A stretch of 64,000 bases of DNA. Source: Aureispira anguillae (GTDB lineage Bacteria > Bacteroidota > Bacteroidia > Chitinophagales > Saprospiraceae). The position numbers and the translations under genes are program-made. The notes below the pieces were generated by a model, which did not search any database, had not been told where the DNA came from, and saw only the letters and a program-made list of their open reading frames with translations. Positions 2,935 through 33,628 of the stretch are shown piece by piece. Each line of letters opens with the position of its first letter. Position 1 is the first letter of the stretch. The stretch covers positions 2,841,716 to 2,905,715 of the forward strand of contig NZ_AP026867.1 of the NCBI RefSeq assembly GCF_026000115.1, read 5' to 3'.

Positions 2935-5613
2935 ATGGAGATAAAAGAAGAAGCACAACAATTAGAAACAGTATTTTTTGCAACACTAGATTCCCTTCGA
3001 GGCATTTGGAATGCCAATAATGCTAGTAGTGTTCTACTTTCATTGGTTTTTTTTAAGCGAATATTAGCACTCAAAGATGAGCAGAAAATCGATGCTATCG
3101 AAACCAAAGCATCGGATTATCAGTGGGCTAGTAACTTTAGGAATACCGTTGTTGACGATCCAGAACAAGCCATGCGTCAATTGATTGGTACATTGGTATC
3201 TTTTTCCAAAAGAAACAAGATACTCAAAAACATTTTTGCGCCACTGGTCTTGGCCTTAGAAGAAGAACAAAACGTACAATTACTTATTCAGGCGATCTTA
3301 ATGCTCGAACGTTTAGATTTTTCAACCAAGGCGATTTCCGTTAATAGTTTTGGAGCCTTTTTTAACGATAGTCTATATAGAACGGCTTTAAGAGCTGGGA
3401 AAATTGGCGTTAAACGAACGACTCCCAAAACGATCAATAGTTTATTGATTGAACTCGCTGCACCAAAAGATGGTGACACAATCTATGACCCTACCGCTGG
3501 GCAAGGTTCTACGCTGATTGCCTTATTAAATAAGTTGCCAAATATTGATATTATTGCCCAAGAACAAAATATACATGTTTGGGCGTTGTGCAAAATGAAT
3601 CTACTGGCAAATGGAGCTTATCATGCACACATTACCAATGGGAATACCCTAACGGAAAATCCTTCTCAGCTTATAAAAGCTGATATTGCCATTGCGCATT
3701 TTCCTTTTGGACAATATATTTCTACCGAAATTGTAAAGCAAAAAGCCTATACTTCTATTCCCTTTGATGTAAAAACGCCACACATTCCTTCTAACAGTCT
3801 TTTTATTCAGTTGATGCTGTCTAAATTAAATCAAGAAGGGAAAATGATTACCATTATCCCCATCCAAACGCTGGTTAACGATAAAGAGGATAGAAAATTA
3901 AGAGAATTCTTGATCCGAAGAGATCTAATAGAAGCCGTAATTACCCTACCCTATGGTTTATTGCATACAACAGGCATTCCTATTTGTATTTTAGTCATCA
4001 ATAAGAAAAAACGTGCTTCTAGAAAAGAACATATTTTGTTTATTAATGGAGCTAATTTAGCCGTTAAAACGCAATCTAAGCTATATAGAGAACTAACTCC
4101 TAAACATATAGAATGCATCAGTGAAGCCTTTCATCATTTAACCACCAATTGTACTTCTGAGTTGGATTCCTGTGTTTCTCACGTTCCTTTGCACCATGTC
4201 ATTCTTAATAATTATAACCTAGATGCCAAGCGATACGCCTCTCCCTTTATTGCTCAACTCAAACAGTTAGATGATTATGGGCAGCTCATTCGGTTAAAAG
4301 AAATATTTAAATCAGAACGCCCTGCCCTTTGGTTTGACGAAACACCACATCAAGATATTCCTTATATCCGACCACAAAACCTCGGTACCTCCATCACGAA
4401 CTATTTAATCAATACTCAAAATATTACCACGACGAACAAGGTAAAACAAGTAGCAGGGCAGTTAATTAATGAATCTATTTTATTGGTTAATCGCTCAGGA
4501 AAAAAACTCAAGACTAGCTATTTTACGTTTGATAAAACGCCCATTTTAGTCAATGAGGATATTATGACATTCCGAATTGATGAAAATAAAGTCTTGATTG
4601 AATATCTTCTTTTGCAATTGCACGATAGCCTTTTTATACAGCAACTCAATATGTATAAAACAGATTATCAGCACAAAATGATTAGTGAAGAACAATTTGA
4701 AGAACTTCAGATTCGCTTGCCTGCTTTAGAAGAACAGGCTCAAATTATAAAAGAAACAAAAATTCGCTTACTGCAAGAGGAAGAACAGAAGGTAGAACAA
4801 CTGCGCAATGACCTTAATCTTGGTAAGCAAAGAGCCCAAAATGAACAATATAAAATAATTTCTTCGCTTCAACACGAATTGGGCAATCGACTACCAGCCG
4901 TTTTAACCGAAATAAAAAACTTAAAAGATTATTTAAAAGATAAAGAAGAAGAAGGCTCTCCCATTCTATTTTCTGAGCCTATTTTTCCACTTTTTGAAGA
5001 AGAAGATCTGGATAGCGTAGATAATTTAGGAACCGTTATCGAACGCATTGAATCTATTCTCGTCCATTCTATTAATAGTTTAGACTCGACAGGAGATATT
5101 ATCAAAGCTGATCGAAGCAAGCTCAACTTAGAATCTACCAAAATCAAGGATCTGTTAGAGGAAATTCAGCAGATTTATCGACAAGAAAATATCTTTACGA
5201 TTCAAATCGAAGTAGAAGAGGATGAAAAAGGAAAAGAAAGACCTATTTATACCAAATTAGACAAAACTCAGATTACGACTGTTATTACCAATCTAATTGA
5301 TAACGCTAAACGACATGGTTTTGTAGAAAAAAACAAGAAATATACCATTCAATTTCGTATCGGTTTATCTTCTGACCAGCAAGAAGTAATTCTCATCTAT
5401 AAAAATGACGGCAAGAGCTTTCCCAACAACTTCTCTTTTGAGGATTTTATTGGCTATGGTAACTATGCAGGGCAAACAGGGCATTCGGGAATTGGAGGTT
5501 ATTTAATTCACCAAATCATAGACAATCATAATGGAAACATTAATTATAGAAAAAAAATTGATCACCGAGACCCTTTTAAAGTTCAATTTGAAATTACACT
5601 CCCTGTTTTGTAA
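2935..5613 (+). CDS. Fusion protein: an HsdM-like gamma-class N6-adenine DNA methyltransferase, a single HsdS-like target-recognition domain, and a histidine-kinase core (DHp H-box plus HATPase_c).
   Basis: Methyltransferase part: FGAFFNDSLYRT resembles the HsdM_N G-x-YE-Y/F motif; DPTAGQGSTLIALL is motif I (FxGxG, AdoMet binding); IAHFPFGQ is motif IV (NPPF/Y-like). Recognition part: ..LPALEEQAQII.. matches the conserved HsdS junction LPxLxEQxxI after a ~170-aa variable region. Kinase part: the coiled coil continues into SLQHELGNRLPAV (HisKA-like H-box), then ITNLIDNAKRHGF (N-box), KNDGKSFP (G1) and GHSGIGGYLIHQIIDNHNGNI (G2). The whole is one uninterrupted 892-aa ORF. Confidence 0.65.
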   Translation: MEIKEEAQQLETVFFATLDSLRGIWNANNASSVLLSLVFFKRILALKDEQKIDAIETKASDYQWASNFRNTVVDDPEQAMRQLIGTLVSFSKRNKILKNIFAPLVLALEEEQNVQLLIQAILMLERLDFSTKAISVNSFGAFFNDSLYRTALRAGKIGVKRTTPKTINSLLIELAAPKDGDTIYDPTAGQGSTLIALLNKLPNIDIIAQEQNIHVWALCKMNLLANGAYHAHITNGNTLTENPSQLIKADIAIAHFPFGQYISTEIVKQKAYTSIPFDVKTPHIPSNSLFIQLMLSKLNQEGKMITIIPIQTLVNDKEDRKLREFLIRRDLIEAVITLPYGLLHTTGIPICILVINKKKRASRKEHILFINGANLAVKTQSKLYRELTPKHIECISEAFHHLTTNCTSELDSCVSHVPLHHVILNNYNLDAKRYASPFIAQLKQLDDYGQLIRLKEIFKSERPALWFDETPHQDIPYIRPQNLGTSITNYLINTQNITTTNKVKQVAGQLINESILLVNRSGKKLKTSYFTFDKTPILVNEDIMTFRIDENKVLIEYLLLQLHDSLFIQQLNMYKTDYQHKMISEEQFEELQIRLPALEEQAQIIKETKIRLLQEEEQKVEQLRNDLNLGKQRAQNEQYKIISSLQHELGNRLPAVLTEIKNLKDYLKDKEEEGSPILFSEPIFPLFEEEDLDSVDNLGTVIERIESILVHSINSLDSTGDIIKADRSKLNLESTKIKDLLEEIQQIYRQENIFTIQIEVEEDEKGKERPIYTKLDKTQITTVITNLIDNAKRHGFVEKNKKYTIQFRIGLSSDQQEVILIYKNDGKSFPNNFSFEDFIGYGNYAGQTGHSGIGGYLIHQIIDNHNGNINYRKKIDHRDPFKVQFEITLPVL

Positions 5614-6725: not shown

Positions 6726-7484
6726 CTACCACTCTAATCCAGGATAAGCACGTTGCATCCATTGCATTTCAGTCAAAATGAACCCCATTTGCTCAGAATG
6801 TTTCCCTTGCTTTCCACCTTTCTGCATCCACCCATCTTCAGGTTTTGCTAGTGTTGCTTCGGTTAGGATGGCATCTACTCGTTCATTCCACAATTCCTTA
6901 ACCGCATTTAGATCAACCCCAATGCCCAATTGGATCATTTGTTGGTCAATTTCATCCATTGCAAATAACTCTCCCACATAATCCCAAGCCTCATTCAATG
7001 CCGTTTGCATTTTCTCATGGCTCTCCTCTGTTCCATCTCCCAAACGAATCACCCATTCCGCACTGTATCGATAATGATAGGTTAATTCTTTGAGCGATTT
7101 TTTGGCAATAGCCACCAGTTCTTCATCTTTGCTATCACAAAGTGCTGCAAAGAAATGATAGTTAAAGGTATCAAATAAAAATTGACGTGCCATTGTATCG
7201 GCAAAGTTACCATTGGCTTGTTCTACCAAAAGAACATTTTTAAATTCACGAGTATCTCGTGTAAATGCCAATGCATCATCTGTTCTGCCCTTTCCTTCTA
7301 CTTTAGCCGCATATTGCAATAAAACACGAGCATGCCCTACCAAATCCAATGCAATATTGGTTAAGCCAATGTCTGTTTCCAAGCTAGGCCCATGACCACA
7401 CCACTCTGAAACACGATGCCCCAAAATCAGCGCATTATCTGCAATACGCAATATATATTCAAATAAAGCTTTGTTATTTTCCAC
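6726..7484 (-). CDS. paaC: 1,2-phenylacetyl-CoA epoxidase subunit C.
   Basis: Position directly after paaB in the cluster. A ~250-aa ferritin-like helical protein typical of PaaC. Confidence 0.7.
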   Translation of the reverse strand: MENNKALFEYILRIADNALILGHRVSEWCGHGPSLETDIGLTNIALDLVGHARVLLQYAAKVEGKGRTDDALAFTRDTREFKNVLLVEQANGNFADTMARQFLFDTFNYHFFAALCDSKDEELVAIAKKSLKELTYHYRYSAEWVIRLGDGTEESHEKMQTALNEAWDYVGELFAMDEIDQQMIQLGIGVDLNAVKELWNERVDAILTEATLAKPEDGWMQKGGKQGKHSEQMGFILTEMQWMQRAYPGLEW

Positions 7485-7514
7485 AATTCAAATTATTATA
7501 ATCATTAAAAAAGC

Positions 7515-7802
7515 CTACATGTGCCCTACTTCATCTGGAATATCATAGAATGTAGGATGGCGATAAGGTTTTGTTTTAGCAGCTTCAAATAACATATCTC
7601 CATCATCAGGGATAGAAGCCGTAATGTGTTTTGATTCTACCACCCAAATACTAACCCCTTCTTGTCTGCGAGTATATACATCACGAGCATTTTCAATGGC
7701 CATATCTTCATCCGCAGCGTGTAAACTTCCTGCGTGTTTGTGGTGCAATCCTGCTTTACTTCTTATAAATACCTCCCAAAGAGGCCAGTCTTTTTTAGAC
7801 AT
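7515..7802 (-). CDS. paaB: 1,2-phenylacetyl-CoA epoxidase subunit B.
   Basis: MSKKDWPLWEVFIRSKAGLHHKHAGSLHAADEDMAIENARDVYTRR..RHPTFYDIPDEVGHM closely parallels E. coli PaaB (MSNVYWPLYEVFVRGKQGLSHRHVGSLHAPDERMALENARDAYTRR..RHPTFYTIPDGIEHM). I set the start at the ATG encoding MSKK (95 aa), because the track ORF starts at a GTG further upstream. Confidence 0.85.
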   Translation of the reverse strand: MSKKDWPLWEVFIRSKAGLHHKHAGSLHAADEDMAIENARDVYTRRQEGVSIWVVESKHITASIPDDGDMLFEAAKTKPYRHPTFYDIPDEVGHM

Positions 7803-7895
7803 AATTTTATACATTTTAATCGTTCGATAATTGTCGTCCAACGTCACGAACTACCCTATAGTTAATAATTAAGTTGTTTGGTCTTAAAAGGCTTT

Positions 7896-8861
7896 TTAAG
7901 CGTTGGATGAAACCATTTCAGCCTTTCTTTTCTCTGCTCTCTTTTTAGCGTGTGCCATAGCAGCCTCACGAACCCATGCTCCCTCTTTGTAAGCTTTGTT
8001 TCGATCTCTCAAACGCTGTTTGTTACAAGGACCACCACCTTTTACAACCTGCCAAAACTCCTCCCAGTCAATTTCTCCAAAGTCATAATGACCACGCTCT
8101 TCATTCCATTTTAAATCCTTATCGGGAATTGTTAAACCCAAAAACTCTGCTTGAGGTACAGTAGCATCCACAAAAGCTTGGCGCAATTCATCGTTTGATT
8201 TACGCTTAATTTTCCAAGCCATAGACTGAGCCGAATGCGTAGATGTTGCATCATTAGGACCAAACATCATTAAAGATGGCCACCACCAACGATTGAGCGC
8301 ATCTTGCGCCATTTCTTTTTGTTCGGGGCTACCTTGTGCCAAAGCCATTGTAATTTCATACCCTTGGCGCTGATGAAAGCTCTCTTCCTTACAGATACGA
8401 ACCATTGCACGAGCATAAGGACCATAAGAAGTACGGGTGAGCATCACTTGGTTCATAATGGCAGCACCATCCACCAACCATCCCACAGCACCAATATCAG
8501 CCCAAGTCAATGTAGGATAATTAAAAATGCTAGAATATTTAGCTTTTCCAGCGTTTAAGTCTTCAAACATTTGCTCTCTAGAAGTACCCAATGTCTCAGC
8601 AGCACTATACAAATACAAGCCGTGACCTCCTTCATCCTGTACCTTTGCTAACAAGGCCATTTTGCGACGCAAAGAAGGCGCTCTACTAATCCAATTGCCT
8701 TCTGGCAGCATCCCGATAATTTCAGAATGCGCATGTTGCGATATTTGTCGAACTAAGGTTTTGCGATACTTCTCAGGCATCCAATCCTTGGGTTCTATTT
8801 TTATTTCGGCATCAATTTTTGCCTGAAATTTCGCCTCTAAATTTTCAATCGTATTTTCCAT
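7896..8861 (-). CDS. paaA: 1,2-phenylacetyl-CoA epoxidase catalytic subunit A.
   Basis: ..[70 protein letters not shown] matches E. coli PaaA almost residue for residue. Confidence 0.9.
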
Positions 8862-8953
8862 AACGAACTTTTTTTGAAATCGCCAATTGTTGTTTAATCT
8901 CCATTGTTCTGTCCCCCTCTCTATTGATATATCTAACCAACTGTATTTATTTA

Positions 8954-10036
8954 TTATACCTCATCAAAATCTACCACTACCTTTTCTGTCGTAGGATAAG
9001 ATTGACAAGTTAAAATAAATCCAGCTTCTACTTCTTCTTTTTCTAAGGCATAATTTAACGCCATTTTTACTGCTCCTTCTTTTAATTTTGCCTTACAGGT
9101 ACAACAAACTCCCCCTTTGCAAGCAAAAGGCAAATCTGCCCCTTGTTTTAGAGCCGCATCCAACAAGTTCTCTGAACCAAAAGGTAAGTCAAATTGGAAT
9201 GCTTTTCCATCTAGATTAACGGTAACCTCTGTTATTTTGCCTTTGTCGGCTTCTTTTACCTCGATCTTTTTTTCTTGCCCTAGTTTTCCCAATGGAGACG
9301 TGAATAGTTCAAAGTGGATGTGTTTTTCATCGTAACCACGATCAATTAACGTATCTTTAACGGCAAAGATCATAGATTCTGGACCACAGGCAAAGCACTC
9401 ATCTACATCGGATACATCCAACAATTTGTCAAAAATATCGGTGCACTTTGACGCATCAATACGCCCATTCATCAAAGGAGCATCCAACATTTCTCTACTC
9501 AAAAAATAATGCACAATTAGACGCTCCATATAAATATTCTTAAGCGCTTCTATTTGTTCTCTAAAAATAATTGACCCTGTATTTTTGTTGCCATAAAACA
9601 AGGTAAAACGACTCTTAGGTTCTGTTTCTAAGACCGTTTTCATAATAGAAATAATTGGCGTAATTCCACTCCCCGCAGCAAAACCAACATAGTGTTTCTC
9701 ATTCGAGGCATCTAATACCGTATAAAAATTTCCTGTAGGTGTCATTACCTCTAAGGAATCTCCCGCTTGAAGTTGGTGGTTGGCAAAGGTCGAAAATTTA
9801 CCATTTTCTACTTGCTTTATAGCTACTCTTAACTCCTCATCCGCAGGGCTTGTACAAATAGAATAAGAACGACGAACATCTTCGTTGTTAATATCTGCTT
9901 TAAGGGTCAAATACTGTCCTTGTACAAAACTATAAGCTGTTTTTAGTGCTTCAGGTACTTCAAAAGCAATGGAACAACAATCTACAGTTTCTTTTCGTAC
10001 TTCCTTAATTTTAAGGGTATTAAATGTTGGTTTCAT
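8954..10036 (-). CDS. paaE: Phenylacetyl-CoA epoxidase reductase subunit (ferredoxin-NAD(P)H reductase with a plant-type 2Fe-2S domain).
   Basis: FNR-like FAD/NAD-binding region (RRSYSI, GSGITP), a C-terminal CxxxxCxxC..C motif ([12 protein letters not shown] .. CQSY), and position 5' of paaA. I moved the start to the ATG encoding MKPTF (CAT at 10034-10036). Confidence 0.75.
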
Positions 10037-10141
10037 TGATAATCTCATTAATAAGTTCTGAGTTTAGGAGGCAAGCCTCCTAAACTCAGGAAATGTTATA
10101 ATATAGTATGCTTTATACTTAACAAGCACTTTATAAATGTA

Positions 10142-10969
10142 TTATTTGTGGAATGCCAGCAAGGGTAAATTAGTTTGCATGGTCATTTTTTTGGTTACGC
10201 TACCACCAGTAAAAATTTTATCCCACAATGTTTTTTTATGCGTTAACATAGCCAGTATATCAATCTTATTGACTCTACAGAAAGTCTCCAAGCCGTCCTC
10301 TATGGTAGAGGCACTCCATACAGAGTAAGTGACTGGCAAGTCGGCAAAATTTTCCTCAAAAGATTTTCTAAAAGCCTCTTCTTCTTTTTGTTTATACGGA
10401 TAATCCGATGGATTGATGTGTATACAGTGAAGATTTGCTTTAATTGCGGTTGTAATCAAGGCTAATTGAAACAAAAGCTCATTGTCTTTGTCGTCAAAAT
10501 CTGTTGCATAAGCGATGTTTTTGACTCCTTCAAAAGTGGCTCCTGTAGGAATTGCTAAGACAGGGCAACTAGCGTGTTGAATAACATTTGCGGTATTGGT
10601 TCCCCAAACTTTATCCAATGCTTTTCCCGATCCATGCGTCCCCATAATAATCAAATCTGCTTCATTTTCTTCTGCAACAGAAACAATTGTATTTTCAGAA
10701 CCAGGTCGTACCACATAAGAAATTTCAACCTTTCCATCCTCATTCAACGGCGCTCTTGTAGCAGCCTTAAGATGCTTAAGAACTTCTTGCTCCTTTTCAT
10801 TGATAATAGATTGAATCATATCGATCGGATAAGTAGATTCAACATAAGGAGGCCAATACAAATGTACAACCACTAAATCAGCACCAATACTTTTGGCCAT
10901 ATCATAGGCATAATAAAATCCCCAACTAGAAGCCGATGAAAAATCGACTGGCACAATTATTTTATCCAT
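10142..10969 (-). CDS. Universal stress protein with tandem UspA domains.
   Basis: Two UspA-like halves carrying the ATP-binding motifs (GTHGSGK, LAIPTG). Confidence 0.75.
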   Translation of the reverse strand: MDKIIVPVDFSSASSWGFYYAYDMAKSIGADLVVVHLYWPPYVESTYPIDMIQSIINEKEQEVLKHLKAATRAPLNEDGKVEISYVVRPGSENTIVSVAEENEADLIIMGTHGSGKALDKVWGTNTANVIQHASCPVLAIPTGATFEGVKNIAYATDFDDKDNELLFQLALITTAIKANLHCIHINPSDYPYKQKEEEAFRKSFEENFADLPVTYSVWSASTIEDGLETFCRVNKIDILAMLTHKKTLWDKIFTGGSVTKKMTMQTNLPLLAFHK

Positions 10970-11015
10970 AATAGTTCAAATAGTTTAGTTCAAGAATAAA
11001 TTATATCTCACTCAA

Positions 11016-11846
11016 TTATTCGTGAAAAGCCAACAACGGTAATTTAGTTCTCAAAGCCATTGCTCTTGTGACACTTTTTTCTCCAAATAATTTATCCCAA
11101 GCAGAACGGTCATGTGTTAGCATCGCTAGTATGTCAATATTGTTTACTCGACAGAAAATTTCTAAACCATCCTCTACCGTATGTGCACTCCACACATTAA
11201 AAACTACTGGCAAATCGCCAAAATTAGCCTTTAATTGTTCTTCGAACTTGGCTCCTTCTGCCAATTGAGGTGTTTCACTAAACAAATTAACATGGATACA
11301 ATGAACCGTTGAATTGGTAGCAGCAGCTACTACAGCCAGTTGTGCAATAGAATCAATGTCTTTAGAATCAAAATTTGTAGCATAAGCTATATTTTGCGCT
11401 GCCTTGAAAGTACTCCCAACAGGAATCGCCAAAACAGGACAATGTGCTTCTTTGATAACCAAACTCGTGTTGCTTCCCCACAATTTACTCGTTGTCTTAT
11501 CTCCTCCGTGCGTTCCCATTACGATCAAATCAACTTTTTGTCGCTTAGCATAATTCGCAATATCATCTTTCAAACCGTAATCAATATCATAAGTTACGGT
11601 GACACTGGTATCATTTGCACTAGAAATAGGACGTTGAGTTGCGGCTTTCAAATGCGCTAAGATTTCTTGTTTTCTCTTTGGAGCATTGGCTTGCAATTTT
11701 TCTAAAGAATAAGTAGCTTCTGTAGCTGGCGAATACATGTTTACTACTAAAACCTGTGCGCCAATAGAGGCCGCTAATTCGTAAGCATAGTAAAATCCCC
11801 AACTAGAAGAAACCGAAAAATCAAATGGTACTAATATCTTTTCCAT
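11016..11846 (-). CDS. Universal stress protein with tandem UspA domains. It is a paralog of the gene immediately before it.
   Basis: Same architecture, about 45% identical to its neighbour (MEKILVPFDFSVSSSWGFYYAYELA.. against MDKIIVPVDFSSASSWGFYYAYDMA..). I trimmed the start to the ATG encoding MEKIL (CAT at 11844-11846). Confidence 0.75.
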   Translation of the reverse strand: MEKILVPFDFSVSSSWGFYYAYELAASIGAQVLVVNMYSPATEATYSLEKLQANAPKRKQEILAHLKAATQRPISSANDTSVTVTYDIDYGLKDDIANYAKRQKVDLIVMGTHGGDKTTSKLWGSNTSLVIKEAHCPVLAIPVGSTFKAAQNIAYATNFDSKDIDSIAQLAVVAAATNSTVHCIHVNLFSETPQLAEGAKFEEQLKANFGDLPVVFNVWSAHTVEDGLEIFCRVNNIDILAMLTHDRSAWDKLFGEKSVTRAMALRTKLPLLAFHE

Positions 11847-12022
11847 AATATGTATGATTAGAATAAAAATAAAAAAATAACTAAATGTTTTGTTATACAA
11901 TTTTACTGCATTCTATAATCAAATAAAAAGACATTCAACAAGTTGAAAGATGATTTTCATCATCTGATGGCATTCTATCAAATAGAGTTGATACAAACTA
12001 TAAATTCTTTTCAAACCTTACT

Positions 12023-12058
12023 TTGATTTGCCCCCCTTTTGAGGGCAAATTGTATTCT
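12023..12058. terminator. Hairpin (atttgccc / gggcaaat, 8-bp stem) just after the end of the E1 gene.
   Basis: Perfect 8-bp inverted repeat. The flanks are U-rich only on the + strand. Confidence 0.25.
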
Positions 12059-12098
12059 AATTTTATAACTAGTCGCTGAGTACAGCCCCAACTTCGAA

Positions 12099-14204
12099 CT
12101 AATATTCTAATAAGTTCAAAATCGCATCGTGCACCTTCTCAGTAGATGGCAACATTGTTTTTTCCAACACTTGATTTAAAGGAATCGCAGGAACATCTAC
12201 AGCACCTAGCGTACGCACAGGAGCATCCAAGTATTCAAAACAATTTTCTTGGATACGAGCAGCAATACTTTGTGCAAAAGTACAGTTGACGGCTTCTTCT
12301 GTGACCACCAAACACCTTCCGTGTTTTTTTACTGCATCAAAAATAGTAGCCGTATCCAATGGATATAACGTACGCAAATCAATGACTTCTACTCGTCCAT
12401 CCAATTTCTGGGCGGCATTCAAAGCCCAATGGACTCCCATACCATAAGTAATGACCGCAATTGATTTGCCTTGTTCTACTTGTTTTTCATCTGCTTTTAC
12501 TGTAATAGCGGCCTGCCCAAATGGAATCATATAATCCTCGTCAGGCAATACCGTGCGAGCAGTTTCTGTTCCTTTTACTTTTGACCAATACAATCCTTTA
12601 TGTTCAAATATTACAACGGGATTAGGATCATAATAAGCAGCCTTCATCAAGCCCTTTAAATCAGCCCCATTGCTAGGGTATGCAATTTTAACCCCTTTTA
12701 TATTAGCAACAACAGATTCTACACTTGAAGAATGATAAGGTCCTCCGCTTCCATAAGCCCCGATTGGTACTCTCAAAATCATACTCACGGGCCATTTTCC
12801 ATTGGACAAATAGCAAGAACGACTAACCTCTGTAAACAATTGATTCAAACCTGGCCAAATATAATCTGCAAATTGGACTTCAACGATAGGTTTTAAACCT
12901 ACCGCAGACATTCCTACCGTAGAACCAATGATAAAAGCTTCTTGAATTGGAGTATTAAAAACTCTTCCATCACCAAACTTTTGAGCCAAGGTTGCCGCCT
13001 CTCTAAAAACACCCCCTAAACGTCCTCCTACATCTTGCCCATACAACAAACATTCTGGATGTTTGCGCATCAACTCTTCAACCGCTGTCAAGGCACTATC
13101 AACCATAACGGTTGCTTCTGCTCCTTCTGGTTGGCGAGTTCCTGTTTCATTAATAACAGGTGTTGCCGCAAAATCGTGTGTATATAAATCATCTGGTCGA
13201 GGATCTTCTGCGGCCAAGGCACGCTCAAAATCAGCCAAAACCAATTCTTTTACTTCTGTCTCTATCTGCTGAATCGCTGATGATGTAAACCCAGCATCCA
13301 ATAACTGTTGCATCATAATTGGATAGGGATCTCTGCTTTTGTGTTCTTCTAGGTCATCTCTATACCATTCCATCCTAACCCCTGAAGTATGGTGATTAAG
13401 CAATGGTACTTTAGCGTGTACTAAGAATGGGCGGCGTTCTTTTCTTATGGTTTCCAAAACCTCTTTTAAGGCTAGGTAACATTCTGTAAAATCATTTCCA
13501 TTGATTTTTACGGCCTCAATTCCTTTAAACCCCTGAATAAATTCATAAGCATCTTGCGCCCGTATTTCGTCTGCACTAGCAGATATATCCCAATCATTAT
13601 CCTGTACCAAATACAAGATTGGCAATTGTTTTAATGCTGCCATTTGAAAAGCCTCGGACACTTCTCCCTCTGTAACAGAGGCATCGCCCAAAGAGCAAAC
13701 AACAACAGGTTGGTCTGCTACGGTCGCATAATCGACCATTTTTTGCTGTTCTTTATATTGAATTCCCATTGCAACCCCTGTTGTAGGAATGGCTTGCATT
13801 CCAGTAGCTGAAGATTGATGTGGAATTTTAGGCTTGTCATCATCTTTTAAACTAGGATGAGAATAATAGGTTCTTCCCCCAGAAAATGGATCATCCCGTT
13901 TAGCCAATACTTGAAGCATCAACTCATAAGGTTGCATACCTATACTTAATAAAATAGAATCATCTCTATAATAAGGAGCAACAAAATCTTGTGCTTCCAA
14001 CTGCATTCCCAAAGCCAACTGAACCGCTTCATGGCCTCTAGATGTTGCATGAACATATTTAGAAGCTACTTTTACATTTGCCTCATAGGTTTCCGCCATT
14101 GTCTTTGCGGTTGCCATCAAACGAAATGCTTCTTCTAATACCGTTTTGGGCATTGTTTGGGCAGTTGTTTTAGTTTTTTTTGTGCGTGTTTTAGTTTTCG
14201 ACAT
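12099..14204 (-). CDS. TPP-dependent 2-oxoacid dehydrogenase E1 component with fused alpha and beta subunits (probably branched-chain or pyruvate dehydrogenase E1).
   Basis: The N-terminal half has the TPP-binding GDASVTEGEVSEAFQMAA..LYLVQDNDW. The C-terminal half is a transketolase-like pyrimidine-binding beta domain. 701 aa fits the alpha/beta fusions common in Bacteroidota. Confidence 0.75.
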   Translation of the reverse strand: MSKTKTRTKKTKTTAQTMPKTVLEEAFRLMATAKTMAETYEANVKVASKYVHATSRGHEAVQLALGMQLEAQDFVAPYYRDDSILLSIGMQPYELMLQVLAKRDDPFSGGRTYYSHPSLKDDDKPKIPHQSSATGMQAIPTTGVAMGIQYKEQQKMVDYATVADQPVVVCSLGDASVTEGEVSEAFQMAALKQLPILYLVQDNDWDISASADEIRAQDAYEFIQGFKGIEAVKINGNDFTECYLALKEVLETIRKERRPFLVHAKVPLLNHHTSGVRMEWYRDDLEEHKSRDPYPIMMQQLLDAGFTSSAIQQIETEVKELVLADFERALAAEDPRPDDLYTHDFAATPVINETGTRQPEGAEATVMVDSALTAVEELMRKHPECLLYGQDVGGRLGGVFREAATLAQKFGDGRVFNTPIQEAFIIGSTVGMSAVGLKPIVEVQFADYIWPGLNQLFTEVSRSCYLSNGKWPVSMILRVPIGAYGSGGPYHSSSVESVVANIKGVKIAYPSNGADLKGLMKAAYYDPNPVVIFEHKGLYWSKVKGTETARTVLPDEDYMIPFGQAAITVKADEKQVEQGKSIAVITYGMGVHWALNAAQKLDGRVEVIDLRTLYPLDTATIFDAVKKHGRCLVVTEEAVNCTFAQSIAARIQENCFEYLDAPVRTLGAVDVPAIPLNQVLEKTMLPSTEKVHDAILNLLEY

Positions 14205-31333: not shown

Positions 31334-32983
31334 TTGTTTCCCAAATTACAAATACATGTGATCAATATTGATCCAATAAAACAGCCCACAATGAATGATG
31401 ATTTCAATGAGGAGTCTCTCTTTGATAATTTAAAAATCAAGCACCTTGCTAATCTATTTCCAGATGCAATTTTATTGATGAACCTTAATGATGGCTTAAT
31501 TTATTATGCCAATAAAGCTGCTGCAAGCTTAACGGGGTTTGATGTCACCGAATTAAAAGGTAGCTTTATTGCCAAATTATATCCAGAAATTATTTCTTCG
31601 GAAAAATTTTATAAAATAGCTGATAAATCCATTAAAGACCCACTCGTTCTTCTAGAAATTGACCTAGAAAGAAAGGATGGAACCTCTATTCCTACAGAAA
31701 CTAATTTAAGTTATTCCTACGATCAAAAATATATTCTTTTTGTTATTCGGGACAAATCTTTACACAAGCAAAAAACGACTATTTTACAACAAATTCAAAA
31801 TGAGTTAAAACAAAAAAACAAAGCACTAGAAGAGAGCAATTTGGAACACCAACGATTGAATGCAATTATCAATGCTATTGACGAAGGTGCTCAAAAGAAA
31901 ATAGGAGAATCCTATTTTAAAACAATTGTTAAGCTCCTTAATAAAAGTTTGGATGCTGATAGTACTTTTATTGCCGAAGTGAATAAAGATCGGCAGCAGG
32001 CTAAAACCTTATACTGGTTTAACAAAATTGAACAGTTAGAAAATATAGTTTATGATTTGAAGTATACTCCCTGCAATGATTTGTCAAATTATAAGACCTG
32101 CATATACCCTGACAATATACAAGAAGCCTTTCCTCTAGATCTTTTTCTAAAAGAAGAAAACATCGTTGGTTATTTAGGAGTTCCCATTTATCAAGAAGGG
32201 GAGCAGGAGAAATCTCTTATTTTGGTTTCTTTATTCAAAACACCAATACAAAGACCCAGCGAAAAAATAAAGATTCTCAATATTTTTAGCCAAAGAATTA
32301 AAAATGAACTAGTTAGAACTCAGCTAACATTGGATTTAGAAAAGCAAAATGAAAATGTTTCTGAGAAAAAAATGCTCCTAAAAGAAATTCATCACCGAGT
32401 AAAAAACAACTTGCAGGTCATTACTAGCTTATTGAGTTTGCAATCTAGTTTCTTGAAAGATGAGCAGACCAAAGAAATATTTAAGTCTAGCCAATATAGA
32501 ATTAATGCGATGGCAATGGTACATGAAATGCTTTATCAATCCAATGAAATTTCTAAAATAAACTACAAGGATTATTTAGAGAAATTGGTCAATAATCTTG
32601 TTCGAGTAATGCAAAAAGACCACTGCCCTATAGAAGTTATTGTTGATTCGCCTGGTGTGCAACTCAATATAGATACTGCTATTCCTTTAGGCTTATTAAT
32701 TAATGAAGTAGTTACCAACTCTCTAAAATATGGTTTTCAAGGACGTACTTCAGGAAAAATAACACTTACCTTAACCGCCTTAGAAGCTACTAACTTTTGT
32801 TTAACGATAGGTGATAATGGTGTTGGTTTCCCAAGCAATTTTGATTTTGACAATATAAAATCTCTTGGACTAAAATTAATCAAAAGATTGTCTGTACAAT
32901 TAAGAGGAAAGTTAGAACGTGCTTCTAATAAAGTTGGCACGCACTATATTTTACATTTCAAAGAGATTGAGCAAAAATCTTAA
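31334..32983 (+). CDS. PAS-domain sensor histidine kinase of the HisKA_2 type.
   Basis: PAS-like N-terminus; HHRVKNNLQVITSLLSLQS (HisKA_2 H-box); HATPase_c (LGLLINEVVTNSLKYGF .. TIGDNGVGFP .. LGLKLIKRL). The start may instead be the ATG at 31391 (MNDDF..). Confidence 0.75.
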   Translation: MFPKLQIHVINIDPIKQPTMNDDFNEESLFDNLKIKHLANLFPDAILLMNLNDGLIYYANKAAASLTGFDVTELKGSFIAKLYPEIISSEKFYKIADKSIKDPLVLLEIDLERKDGTSIPTETNLSYSYDQKYILFVIRDKSLHKQKTTILQQIQNELKQKNKALEESNLEHQRLNAIINAIDEGAQKKIGESYFKTIVKLLNKSLDADSTFIAEVNKDRQQAKTLYWFNKIEQLENIVYDLKYTPCNDLSNYKTCIYPDNIQEAFPLDLFLKEENIVGYLGVPIYQEGEQEKSLILVSLFKTPIQRPSEKIKILNIFSQRIKNELVRTQLTLDLEKQNENVSEKKMLLKEIHHRVKNNLQVITSLLSLQSSFLKDEQTKEIFKSSQYRINAMAMVHEMLYQSNEISKINYKDYLEKLVNNLVRVMQKDHCPIEVIVDSPGVQLNIDTAIPLGLLINEVVTNSLKYGFQGRTSGKITLTLTALEATNFCLTIGDNGVGFPSNFDFDNIKSLGLKLIKRLSVQLRGKLERASNKVGTHYILHFKEIEQKS

Positions 32984-33259: not shown

Positions 33260-33628
33260 ATGGAAGGAAAAAAAATTTTTATCGTTGAAGACGATATGAT
33301 CATTCAGATGTTTATTGAACGAATCCTAGGCAACTTAGGATTGGACATCATTGGTGAGGCTCGAACTGGAGATGAGACACTTGCCTTTCTAGAAACCAAT
33401 CGCCCTGATTTTATTTTGATGGATATTGGTCTTGCAGGAAACAAAGATGGCATCGAAACTGCTGAAATTATTAATCAAAAATATCAAATTCCCATTATTT
33501 TTTTAACGGGGAATTCTGATAAACCCACTTTGGCTAGAGCACAAAAAACCCGCCCAATTGGATTTATCAACAAACCCATTGATGAAGCAAGCCTAAAAAG
33601 TGTGATGAAAAAATATTTTAAGGACTAA
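33260..33628 (+). CDS. Stand-alone response-regulator receiver (CheY-like) protein.
   Basis: IFIVEDD .. ILMDIGL (phospho-acceptor Asp) .. IIFLTG .. K. 122 aa with no output domain. Confidence 0.8.
   Translation: MEGKKIFIVEDDMIIQMFIERILGNLGLDIIGEARTGDETLAFLETNRPDFILMDIGLAGNKDGIETAEIINQKYQIPIIFLTGNSDKPTLARAQKTRPIGFINKPIDEASLKSVMKKYFKD

Follow-up and report, generated by a model that had tools for sequence, protein, structure and literature searches.

A putative sensor histidine kinase with a DNA methyltransferase-like input module in Aureispira anguillae, and its receiver-domain partner in relatives

The inputs established for two-component kinases are small molecules, light, redox state and envelope stress. 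Then, could a DNA methyltransferase stand in the place of such an input? This question is raised by a gene of Aureispira anguillae (Bacteroidota, Saprospiraceae), which lies in a stretch of 64,000 nucleotides of contig NZ_AP026867.1 (NCBI RefSeq assembly GCF_026000115.1, positions 2,841,716 to 2,905,715 of the forward strand), referred to below as the window. The gene, termed MHK here, encodes an HsdM-like methyltransferase, one HsdS-like target-recognition domain (TRD) and a histidine-kinase core in one reading frame (Table 1). In more distant Saprospiraceae, a gene of about 316 aa stands beside the MHK genes, and is given the name REC-X here. We consider it probable that MHK is a sensor histidine kinase whose input is the methyltransferase together with its TRD, and that it is a domesticated member of an undescribed family associated with restriction-modification (R-M) systems.

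The core of the type I R-M systems, HsdM2-HsdS1, is represented by EcoKI, EcoR124I and PacII (M1M2S). MHK shares with it the N6_Mtase fold, a TRD with the LPxLxEQ motif and the conserved-region helix, whereas MHK is a single polypeptide, has one TRD rather than two and HFPF rather than NPPF, and comes without HsdR; furthermore, its conserved-region helix continues into the kinase. The HsdS layout of two TRDs with two conserved-region helices was not found in MHK, where one Methylase_S stretch is followed by a single helix. With the classical histidine kinases EnvZ, VanS, WalK and SrrB, MHK has in common the N and G2 boxes of HATPase_c, the histidine in an upstream hairpin and, in relatives, a receiver-domain partner gene. 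However, its dimerization and histidine phosphotransfer (DHp) region lies outside the Pfam families, a DNA methyltransferase with a TRD occupies the input position, and the receiver partner is divergent.

An N6-methyladenine (m6A) methyltransferase, a specificity module and a protein kinase also come together in Pgl/BREX type 2 and MADS, in which the methyltransferase and the kinase reside on different polypeptides, the latter being of the Ser/Thr type. On MHK, the MADS models gave 34.1 bits for MAD2 against a cut-off of 720, and 21.1 bits for MAD5 against a cut-off of 400. Detocs, which is said to be a three-gene system that includes a buffer receiver, has a PNP effector in most cases and lacks a methyltransferase, resembles MHK/REC-X in that a histidine kinase and a receiver occur in a defence-island setting, and its N-terminal TPR is also found in some MHK relatives. 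Unlike in Detocs, no three-gene layout was seen for MHK, the comparison through PADLOC having been made with a release without confirmed Detocs models.

The nearest published idea is that of the HEF_HK/Response_reg_2 pairs (Bellieny-Rabelo et al. 2021, PMC8011034), each a divergent kinase in tight linkage with a divergent, receiver-only partner and enriched in the vicinity of R-M systems, features that they share with MHK/REC-X. The HEF_HK family has the architecture HATPase_c_3(paraMORC)+HEF_HK+HATPase_c, and is mostly proteobacterial and linked to type II/C5 methylases (PMC8011034). The models PF19191 and PF19192 matched neither MHK nor REC-X nor any of 20 sampled relatives. Another pair of a GHKL-type kinase and a partner is CapK/CapS, a kinase and its substrate located upstream of immune operons, where single-stranded DNA activates CapK directly; CapK is an anti-sigma-type Ser kinase and CapS a STAS repressor (PMC13373217). 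CapK/CapS, in contrast to MHK/REC-X as proposed here, is without a His-Asp relay or a methyltransferase. Full-text searching of the literature found no description of the MHK architecture, and we regard MHK/REC-X as a probable two-component system whose input module is without precedent and whose response regulator is missing from the catalogues.

Based on the translation and on profile searches, the three-part anatomy that an initial annotation, made by reading the window alone, had given for the 892-aa open reading frame (ORF) was confirmed, and all the motifs it had quoted were found at their positions. N6_Mtase (PF02384; E 7.9e-48, 163.8 bits), Methylase_S (PF01420; E 1.4e-9, 38.8 bits, cut-off 22) and HATPase_c (PF02518, aa 776-890; E 2.2e-8, 35 bits, cut-off 26.4) all exceed their Pfam cut-offs. 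The fusion is genuine, and not an artefact of sequencing or assembly, because the architecture is kept unbroken in 42 full-length orthologs from Aureispira and other Saprospiraceae, which are 46-82% identical to MHK and whose alignment has 130 invariant columns. The G+C content of the gene, 0.32-0.39, equals that of its flanks, without any compositional anomaly. A structural model of MHK was made with AlphaFold2 (AF2), and its mean predicted local distance difference test (pLDDT) value is 81.6.

In the AF2 model, with secondary structure assigned by DSSP, a helix that ends at residue 673 is followed by a loop of 24 residues (674-697) and a second helix (698-724), and the hairpin is followed by an alpha/beta ATP-binding fold, which has a low-confidence segment at 836-853 just ahead of the G2 box. 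His647 is located in the first of these helices, a continuous one that begins at residue 598, just past the LPxLxEQ motif at the end of the TRD. All 42 orthologs have this His, and so does every one of the 147 superfamily representatives with a residue at the position. In the catalytic ATP-binding (CA) domain, N786, N790, H794, G826, G852, G854 and G855 are invariant among the orthologs; in the superfamily, aligned to the ortholog hidden Markov model (HMM), N790 is present in 149 of 149 members and G852, G854 and G855 each in 147-148 of 149. The best-conserved regions of MHK among the orthologs are the conserved-region helix (identity 0.67) and the DHp (0.64).

A profile search of the PDB with the TRD and kinase half returned VanS, SrrB, EnvZ, WalK/YycG, another histidine kinase and then RsbW, and nothing else; the NCBIfam matches of the kinase half are weak and are to sensor kinases only (ChvG, AdeS, EnvZ, RstB). 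HATPase_c_3, the GHKL domain of MORC/paraMORC type, was not matched by MHK in Pfam. The kinase assignment of the initial annotation is therefore upheld by the invariant His647, the near-invariant N-box Asn and G2 glycines and the solved relatives, and the profile searches placed the C-terminal region in HATPase_c, with histidine kinases as its main solved relatives, not in the non-kinase family whose possibility had been pointed out beforehand. Its label 'HisKA-type' for the H-box is to be understood as resemblance rather than membership, because neither a Pfam DHp model nor a PDB sequence matches the H-box region. As judged by these searches, MHK would be a kinase with an unclassified DHp.

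REC-X as a whole has no match in Pfam or NCBIfam. Its gene overlaps the kinase gene or starts 3-40 bp after it in the Saprospiraceae loci L005, L008, L012-L017, L019 and L024 (L numbers denote the loci compared), of which L019 is Saprospira grandis DSM 2844, which carries an adjacent MHK/REC-X pair. The 70 REC-X homologs, at 56-86% identity, include some named 'response regulator receiver protein' by NCBI. The invariant residues of REC-X, DDD15-17, D60, T103 and K122, constitute the five signature residues of receiver domains, and REC-X has a receiver fold, even if its divergence keeps it from matching Pfam Response_reg (best E about 0.1). Beyond the receiver come ~190 helical residues, among which an Arg, a His and a Trp are conserved; nothing informative matched this part in Pfam, NCBIfam or PADLOC.

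For one genome per species there are 24 REC-X loci, and the kinase gene is directly upstream in 8 of them, including that of S. grandis DSM 2844; in about 13 other loci with enough upstream sequence it is not. Such unlinked REC-X genes, mostly from metagenome-assembled genomes (MAGs) labelled as Aureispira, stand alone amid housekeeping genes. The linkage extends beyond these genomes. Nine metagenome loci have sequence past a related kinase, and in each of the nine a REC-X homolog comes next (E 1e-15 to 3e-49), and REC-X-like genes also follow the kinase on a Myroides plasmid (hhalign 96.8%, E 3e-10) and in the Bacteroidetes MAG L052 (E 1.7e-12). Consequently, signalling by phosphotransfer, as suggested in the initial annotation, finds support at the level of the family, in which relatives of MHK carry a dedicated receiver gene directly downstream.

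Some variation around REC-X was also observed. The forms in L037 (10097-11263) and L052 (11241-12377) are 378-388 aa long and have an extra C-terminal extension of ~80 residues, possibly beta-rich to judge by the sequence, which the forms of 300-320 aa lack. In L005, a PNP_UDP_1 gene (11772-12716) is located 66 bp 3' of REC-X; this family presumably includes SAH/MTA nucleosidases (acting on S-adenosylhomocysteine and methylthioadenosine) beside nucleoside phosphorylases. It was rejected as an associate of REC-X, not being conserved across the other loci compared.

As to the methyltransferase half, its relationship to HsdM is evident at the levels of both sequence and structure. The PacII methyltransferase (7vru_A) is the top PDB sequence match of MHK (E 3.9e-27); Foldseek aligned the N-terminal half of the AF2 model with whole HsdM chains (PacII, E 1.7e-25), and the model superposes on the HsdM chains of PacII, EcoR124I, EcoKI and others. 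With the full MHK model, only methyltransferases were among the Foldseek matches. Residues 1-138 are all-helical at high pLDDT, and HsdM_N matches aa 15-102 at E 0.026, which is under the Pfam cut-off. TIGR00497, the equivalog model of hsdM, gives 90.9 bits and does not reach its cut-off of 242.75.

Around the S-adenosylmethionine (SAM) pocket, D185 is present in 41/42 orthologs, G189 in 42/42 and G191 in 41/42, and the acidic residue of motif II, E210, in 42/42. Motif IV has another pattern. Position 255 is H in 33 orthologs, N in four, S in three and C in two; position 257 is P in 38, S in three and Q in one; positions 256 and 258 are F in all 42. Contact with the target adenine is normally made by the first residue of this motif, so the residue with this role varies amid fixed neighbours. 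Among 117 long members of the superfamily, the same residue is N in 25, D in 15, V in 11, E in 11, H in 10, T in 6 and others in the rest. As far as can be read from the alignments, then, the SAM pocket of MHK appears conserved and its catalytic motif relaxed, and the expectation of a normal gamma-class enzyme is not borne out, since HFPF is non-canonical and the motif is degenerate both here and across the family. Since the His and the ATP site are fixed and motif IV is scattered, selection has acted to keep the phospho-acceptor and the ATP site rather than methyl transfer.

The TRD is matched by the Specificity_I models of PADLOC down to E 2.6e-13, and can be aligned over all the orthologs without large indels. 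Its mean pairwise identity among them is 0.52, compared with 0.55 for the methyltransferase domain. The TRDs of working R-M systems are hypervariable, and in this respect the conserved TRD of MHK differs from those of active R-M systems.

How common is this architecture? An HMM of the TRD and kinase half was searched against 1.84 billion cluster representatives, with clusters at 50% identity, and matched 2,587 proteins at E<=1e-3, of which 1,231 remain when the threshold is tightened to E<=1e-10 and 240 when it is tightened to E<=1e-30. The best 150 matches are mostly 800-1,150 aa long, with the match in the C-terminal half. N6_Mtase and HATPase_c were both found in 17 of 18 sampled members longer than 550 aa, and in the long members these are often accompanied by Methylase_S and, at the N-terminus, by HARE-HTH or a TPR array; some proteins of ~450 aa consist of TRD and kinase only, and others have the same H-box with an uncharacterised N-terminus. 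The database labels are 'N-6 DNA methylase' or 'HsdM' only, and the protein 100% identical to MHK is likewise named 'N-6 DNA methylase [Aureispira anguillae]'. Another wide homolog search, with a diverse profile, gave mostly fragments and little taxonomy. The fusion is neither unique nor rare in the databases but widespread, with at least 240 clusters at 50% identity, and hundreds of database proteins share the architecture, so that the MHK family is not a one-off.

Variants were noted within the family. In the Saprospiraceae locus L024 (6458-10023), a variant of 868 aa, 29% identical to MHK, has lost motif I and retains only 26 bits to N6_Mtase; its G1 is 'NTG', and REC-X follows 3 bp downstream. 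Short kinases of 458-477 aa with an S-I-Q-H-E-L-G-N H-box occur in L044 (6114-8425), L045, L046 and L047; they have no methyltransferase but an uncharacterised N-terminus of ~200 aa, and REC-X comes after each of them. In one Saprospiraceae lineage (L009, 10704-13067), a gene for an AAA_11/AAA_12 (Upf1-like SF1) helicase is located 4 bp 3' of MHK, in the place of REC-X or the ROK kinase.

In lineages other than Saprospiraceae, kinase and REC-X genes form a tight operon that lies in defence islands, next to type I R-M systems, as in the plasmids and metagenome loci at the end of Table 1, where the assignment of the HsdS-/HsdM-like ORFs of L044 is made from weak HMM matches alone. In L052, the methyltransferase is in two short ORFs ahead of a TRD-kinase of 416 aa (8905-11251), which may be a frameshifted or a naturally split fusion. 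It was considered whether the site read by the plasmid kinases could be that of the HsdS encoded next to them. This was rejected, as no similarity between the TRDs was found past the junction motif; the TRDs being unrelated, the kinase would not read the site of the neighbouring enzyme. Neither REC-X nor the kinase half is matched by a defence-system model of PADLOC-DB v2.0.0; for the kinase half there are just two chance-level matches, to models of oligonucleotide cyclases (E 0.013-0.018). Taken together, the kinase/REC-X pair is an undescribed two-gene module, which elsewhere in Bacteroidota is embedded in type I R-M defence loci.

Table 1. Features of MHK in the window, and gene orders at related loci outside Saprospiraceae.
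Feature or locus	Position in the window	Strand	Basis or gene order
MHK gene, methyltransferase-TRD-histidine kinase fusion	2935..5613	+	ATG start, 892 aa, stop codon counted
N-terminal helical domain, weakly HsdM_N-like	2935..3348, aa 1-138	+	Pfam, AF2, Foldseek
N6_Mtase domain, class I SAM-dependent fold, HsdM type	3349..4245, aa 139-437	+	Pfam, PDB match
Motif I DPTAGQG, SAM-binding loop	3487..3507, aa 185-191	+	Translation
Motif IV HFPF, degenerate (N/D/S)PP(F/Y/W)	3697..3708, aa 255-258	+	Translation
Single HsdS-type TRD, LPxLxEQ junction at its end	4288..4752, aa 452-606	+	Pfam, PADLOC
Continuous predicted helix, HsdS conserved-region helix into kinase hairpin helix 1	4726..4953, aa 598-673	+	AF2/DSSP
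His647 codon, predicted phospho-acceptor, within SSLQHELGNRLP	4873..4875	+	Translation, conservation
DHp-like helical hairpin, long conserved loop EPIFPxFEGED	4852..5106, aa 640-724	+	AF2
CA domain; N-box TNLIDNAKRHGF, G1 KNDG, G2 GHSGIGG	5131..5610, aa 733-892	+	Pfam, PDB profile
Myroides odoratimimus plasmid pFM-G13			WYL, MHK (818 aa), REC-X-like (388 aa), hsdM, hsdS, hypothetical, PLD-like, hsdR
Fulvitalea axinellae plasmid			MHK (905 aa), 326-aa protein weakly REC-X-like, adjoining hsdR, hsdS, hsdM
Metagenome loci L039-L041			RmuC, MHK, REC-X, hsdM, Schlafen/Fic-like
Metagenome locus L044			TOTE system, short kinase, REC-X, hsdR, two GmrSD genes, then HsdS-/HsdM-like ORFs
Bacteroidetes MAG L052			Split methyltransferase, TRD-kinase, REC-X-like, hsdM, hsdS, hsdR

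The situation in Aureispira is of another kind. Upstream of MHK, on the opposite strand, are a YchJ/SEC-C gene and a PF09905 VF530 gene (the 'DUF2132' gene of the initial annotation, whose list of neighbours proved right), and downstream are a ROK kinase gene and then paa genes; this order, ychJ-VF530 / MHK / ROK-paa, is conserved across the Aureispira loci. The Aureispira neighbourhoods contain no hsdS, hsdR, defence or receiver gene, and in the 64-kb window tblastn with HsdR, HsdS and HsdM queries found no type I R-M gene other than MHK itself, in agreement with the earlier statement that no hsdR, second hsdS or receiver gene is adjacent. The Aureispira MHK has no link to REC-X or to an R-M system, and within Saprospiraceae MHK has become a gene of the chromosome that is inherited vertically. 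For A. anguillae, a domesticated regulator rather than active defence is suggested by the synteny with housekeeping genes, by a TRD that is conserved, by a base composition like that of the host and by the absence of R-M or defence neighbours.

The paa genes downstream of ROK form a phenylacetate-CoA oxygenase cluster (6726-10048, minus strand) with PaaA/PaaC, PaaB and a PaaE of the ferredoxin-reductase type, which is also syntenic across the Aureispira loci. A scan for promoters and terminators found no terminator between MHK and ROK, the promoter consensus used being of the sigma-70 type and not of the Bacteroidota type. The ROK kinase was rejected as a functional partner, for its linkage is restricted to Aureispira and the ~316-aa downstream gene of the distant relatives is unrelated to ROK. 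Elsewhere in the window, a PAS/GAF histidine kinase with a HisKA_2-like H-box, HHRVKNNLQ (31334-32983, plus strand), is followed by a single-domain receiver (33260-33628), and the two look like a separate, self-contained two-component pair. The receiver had been put forward as a phosphotransfer partner of MHK, which its position directly after a kinase of its own speaks against.

How might MHK work? In the mechanism we propose, the methyltransferase/TRD unit, with a conserved SAM pocket and a relaxed catalytic motif, would engage DNA, and the change would travel along the single helix of residues 598-673, in which the conserved-region helix of HsdS and the first helix of the kinase hairpin are joined. 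The C-terminal ATP-binding domain would then phosphorylate His647, from which the phosphoryl group would pass to Asp60 of REC-X, composed of the receiver and a helical output domain of ~190 aa. The anatomy, the pattern of conservation, the receiver fold and the gene linkage are what the sequences show; that DNA is the ligand, that SAM or SAH plays a part, that the helix relays the change, that MHK phosphorylates itself and then its partner, and that an output follows, is what we infer. Three observations suggest a sensor rather than an enzyme: the first residue of motif IV varies while its flanks and the His are fixed, the L024 variant has lost motif I yet retains the kinase and REC-X, and the short kinases without a methyltransferase also pair with REC-X.

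Several observations weigh against this interpretation. The four orthologs with NFPF and the three with SFPF are possibly still active methyltransferases. None of the DHp families HisKA, HisKA_2, HisKA_3, HWE_HK, His_kinase and HEF_HK gives a Pfam match at E<=1, and the hairpin region with the His has no PDB sequence match. In the G1 box, N-D-G has Asn in the place of the adenine-binding Asp of most kinases, a feature shared by VanS with 'KN[TD]G'. In addition, the conserved-region helices of HsdS pair antiparallel and DHp helices parallel, so the placement of the two TRDs in a dimer is problematic. Finally, REC-X is absent from the 64-kb window by tblastn, and no REC-X of A. anguillae was detected among the 70 homologs, in look-ups that gave only MAGs and metagenomes; A. 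anguillae may therefore rely on a different partner, or have none.

Could the MHK of A. anguillae still be an anti-phage defence sensor, which marks self DNA and signals on unmethylated foreign DNA, as its relatives on plasmids and in defence islands perhaps do? The outgroup members located beside complete type I R-M systems and GmrSD, TOTE, RmuC, Schlafen/Fic-like and PLD genes would fit this explanation, as would the pairing of methyltransferase and kinase in Pgl/BREX type 2 and MADS and the weak mad2 and mad5 matches. However, the Aureispira copy has a housekeeping synteny with no defence genes and neither hsdR nor an effector nearby, its TRD is as conserved as the rest of the protein, its composition is that of the host, and the kinase half and REC-X are matched by no PADLOC model. 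A present-day defence role in this species is therefore unlikely, and the earlier suggestion of a defence or epigenetic module captures a real part of the family's past, seen in the outgroup members that neighbour type I R-M systems in defence islands.

It is also conceivable, but quite improbable, that MHK is an active orphan m6A methyltransferase whose GHKL domain drives or gates the recognition of sites, working as an ATPase or clamp like the MORC/paraMORC ATPases of R-M systems and not as a phosphotransfer kinase. The SAM-binding residues are indeed conserved and no DHp Pfam family matches, and GHKL ATPases are described as partners of R-M systems in the passage of PMC8011034 that cites Iyer et al. 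2008. Nevertheless, the His is invariant in 147/147 members and a receiver-domain gene is tightly linked across the family; histidine kinases, and not MutL, MORC or GyrB, are the closest proteins of solved structure, HATPase_c_3 is not matched, and the poorly conserved residue of the methyltransferase is the catalytic one. The coupling of a kinase-domain ATPase to site recognition, one of the two functions first envisaged for the fusion, is likewise disfavoured, since the His is invariant and a receiver partner exists in relatives.

Another possibility is that control runs in the reverse direction, the methyltransferase being the output and the kinase/REC-X pair setting when or where an epigenetic mark is written. 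The conserved SAM pocket and TRD agree with this, and N or S at motif IV in some orthologs is compatible with catalysis. The N-terminal module of histidine kinases is, however, normally the input, the catalytic residue varies widely, and in some members the methyltransferase is absent or decayed but the kinase and REC-X are kept, which makes reversed control very doubtful. That MHK is now a functionless, decaying remnant of a type I R-M-linked module, as the degenerate catalytic motif and the loss of the partner and R-M genes from the neighbourhood might suggest, is hardly credible, given a frame intact in 42 orthologs down to 46% identity, 130 invariant columns and a kinase half that is the best-conserved part.

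The interpretation of MHK as a domesticated sensor kinase is thus retained, and what had first been read from the window is partly supported. Going one step further, we tentatively suggest that MHK/REC-X is a new His-Asp system whose sensor is a methyltransferase-like, base-flipping and sequence-specific reader of DNA, with an R-M-linked form that reports unmethylated or foreign DNA and a domesticated form in Saprospiraceae; this fuller proposal is possible but less likely than not. If it is true, the R-M-linked MHK/REC-X would trigger or regulate immunity, the Saprospiraceae MHK would be a chromosomal regulator that senses DNA or its methylation state, and the system would be the first two-component system with a DNA sequence or an epigenetic mark as its ligand. 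The input module of MHK would then add DNA sequence or methylation state to the known inputs of such kinases. The family could be a regulatory or sensing layer of R-M and defence islands, and its Saprospiraceae copies illustrate how an R-M-linked module can be turned to a housekeeping role.

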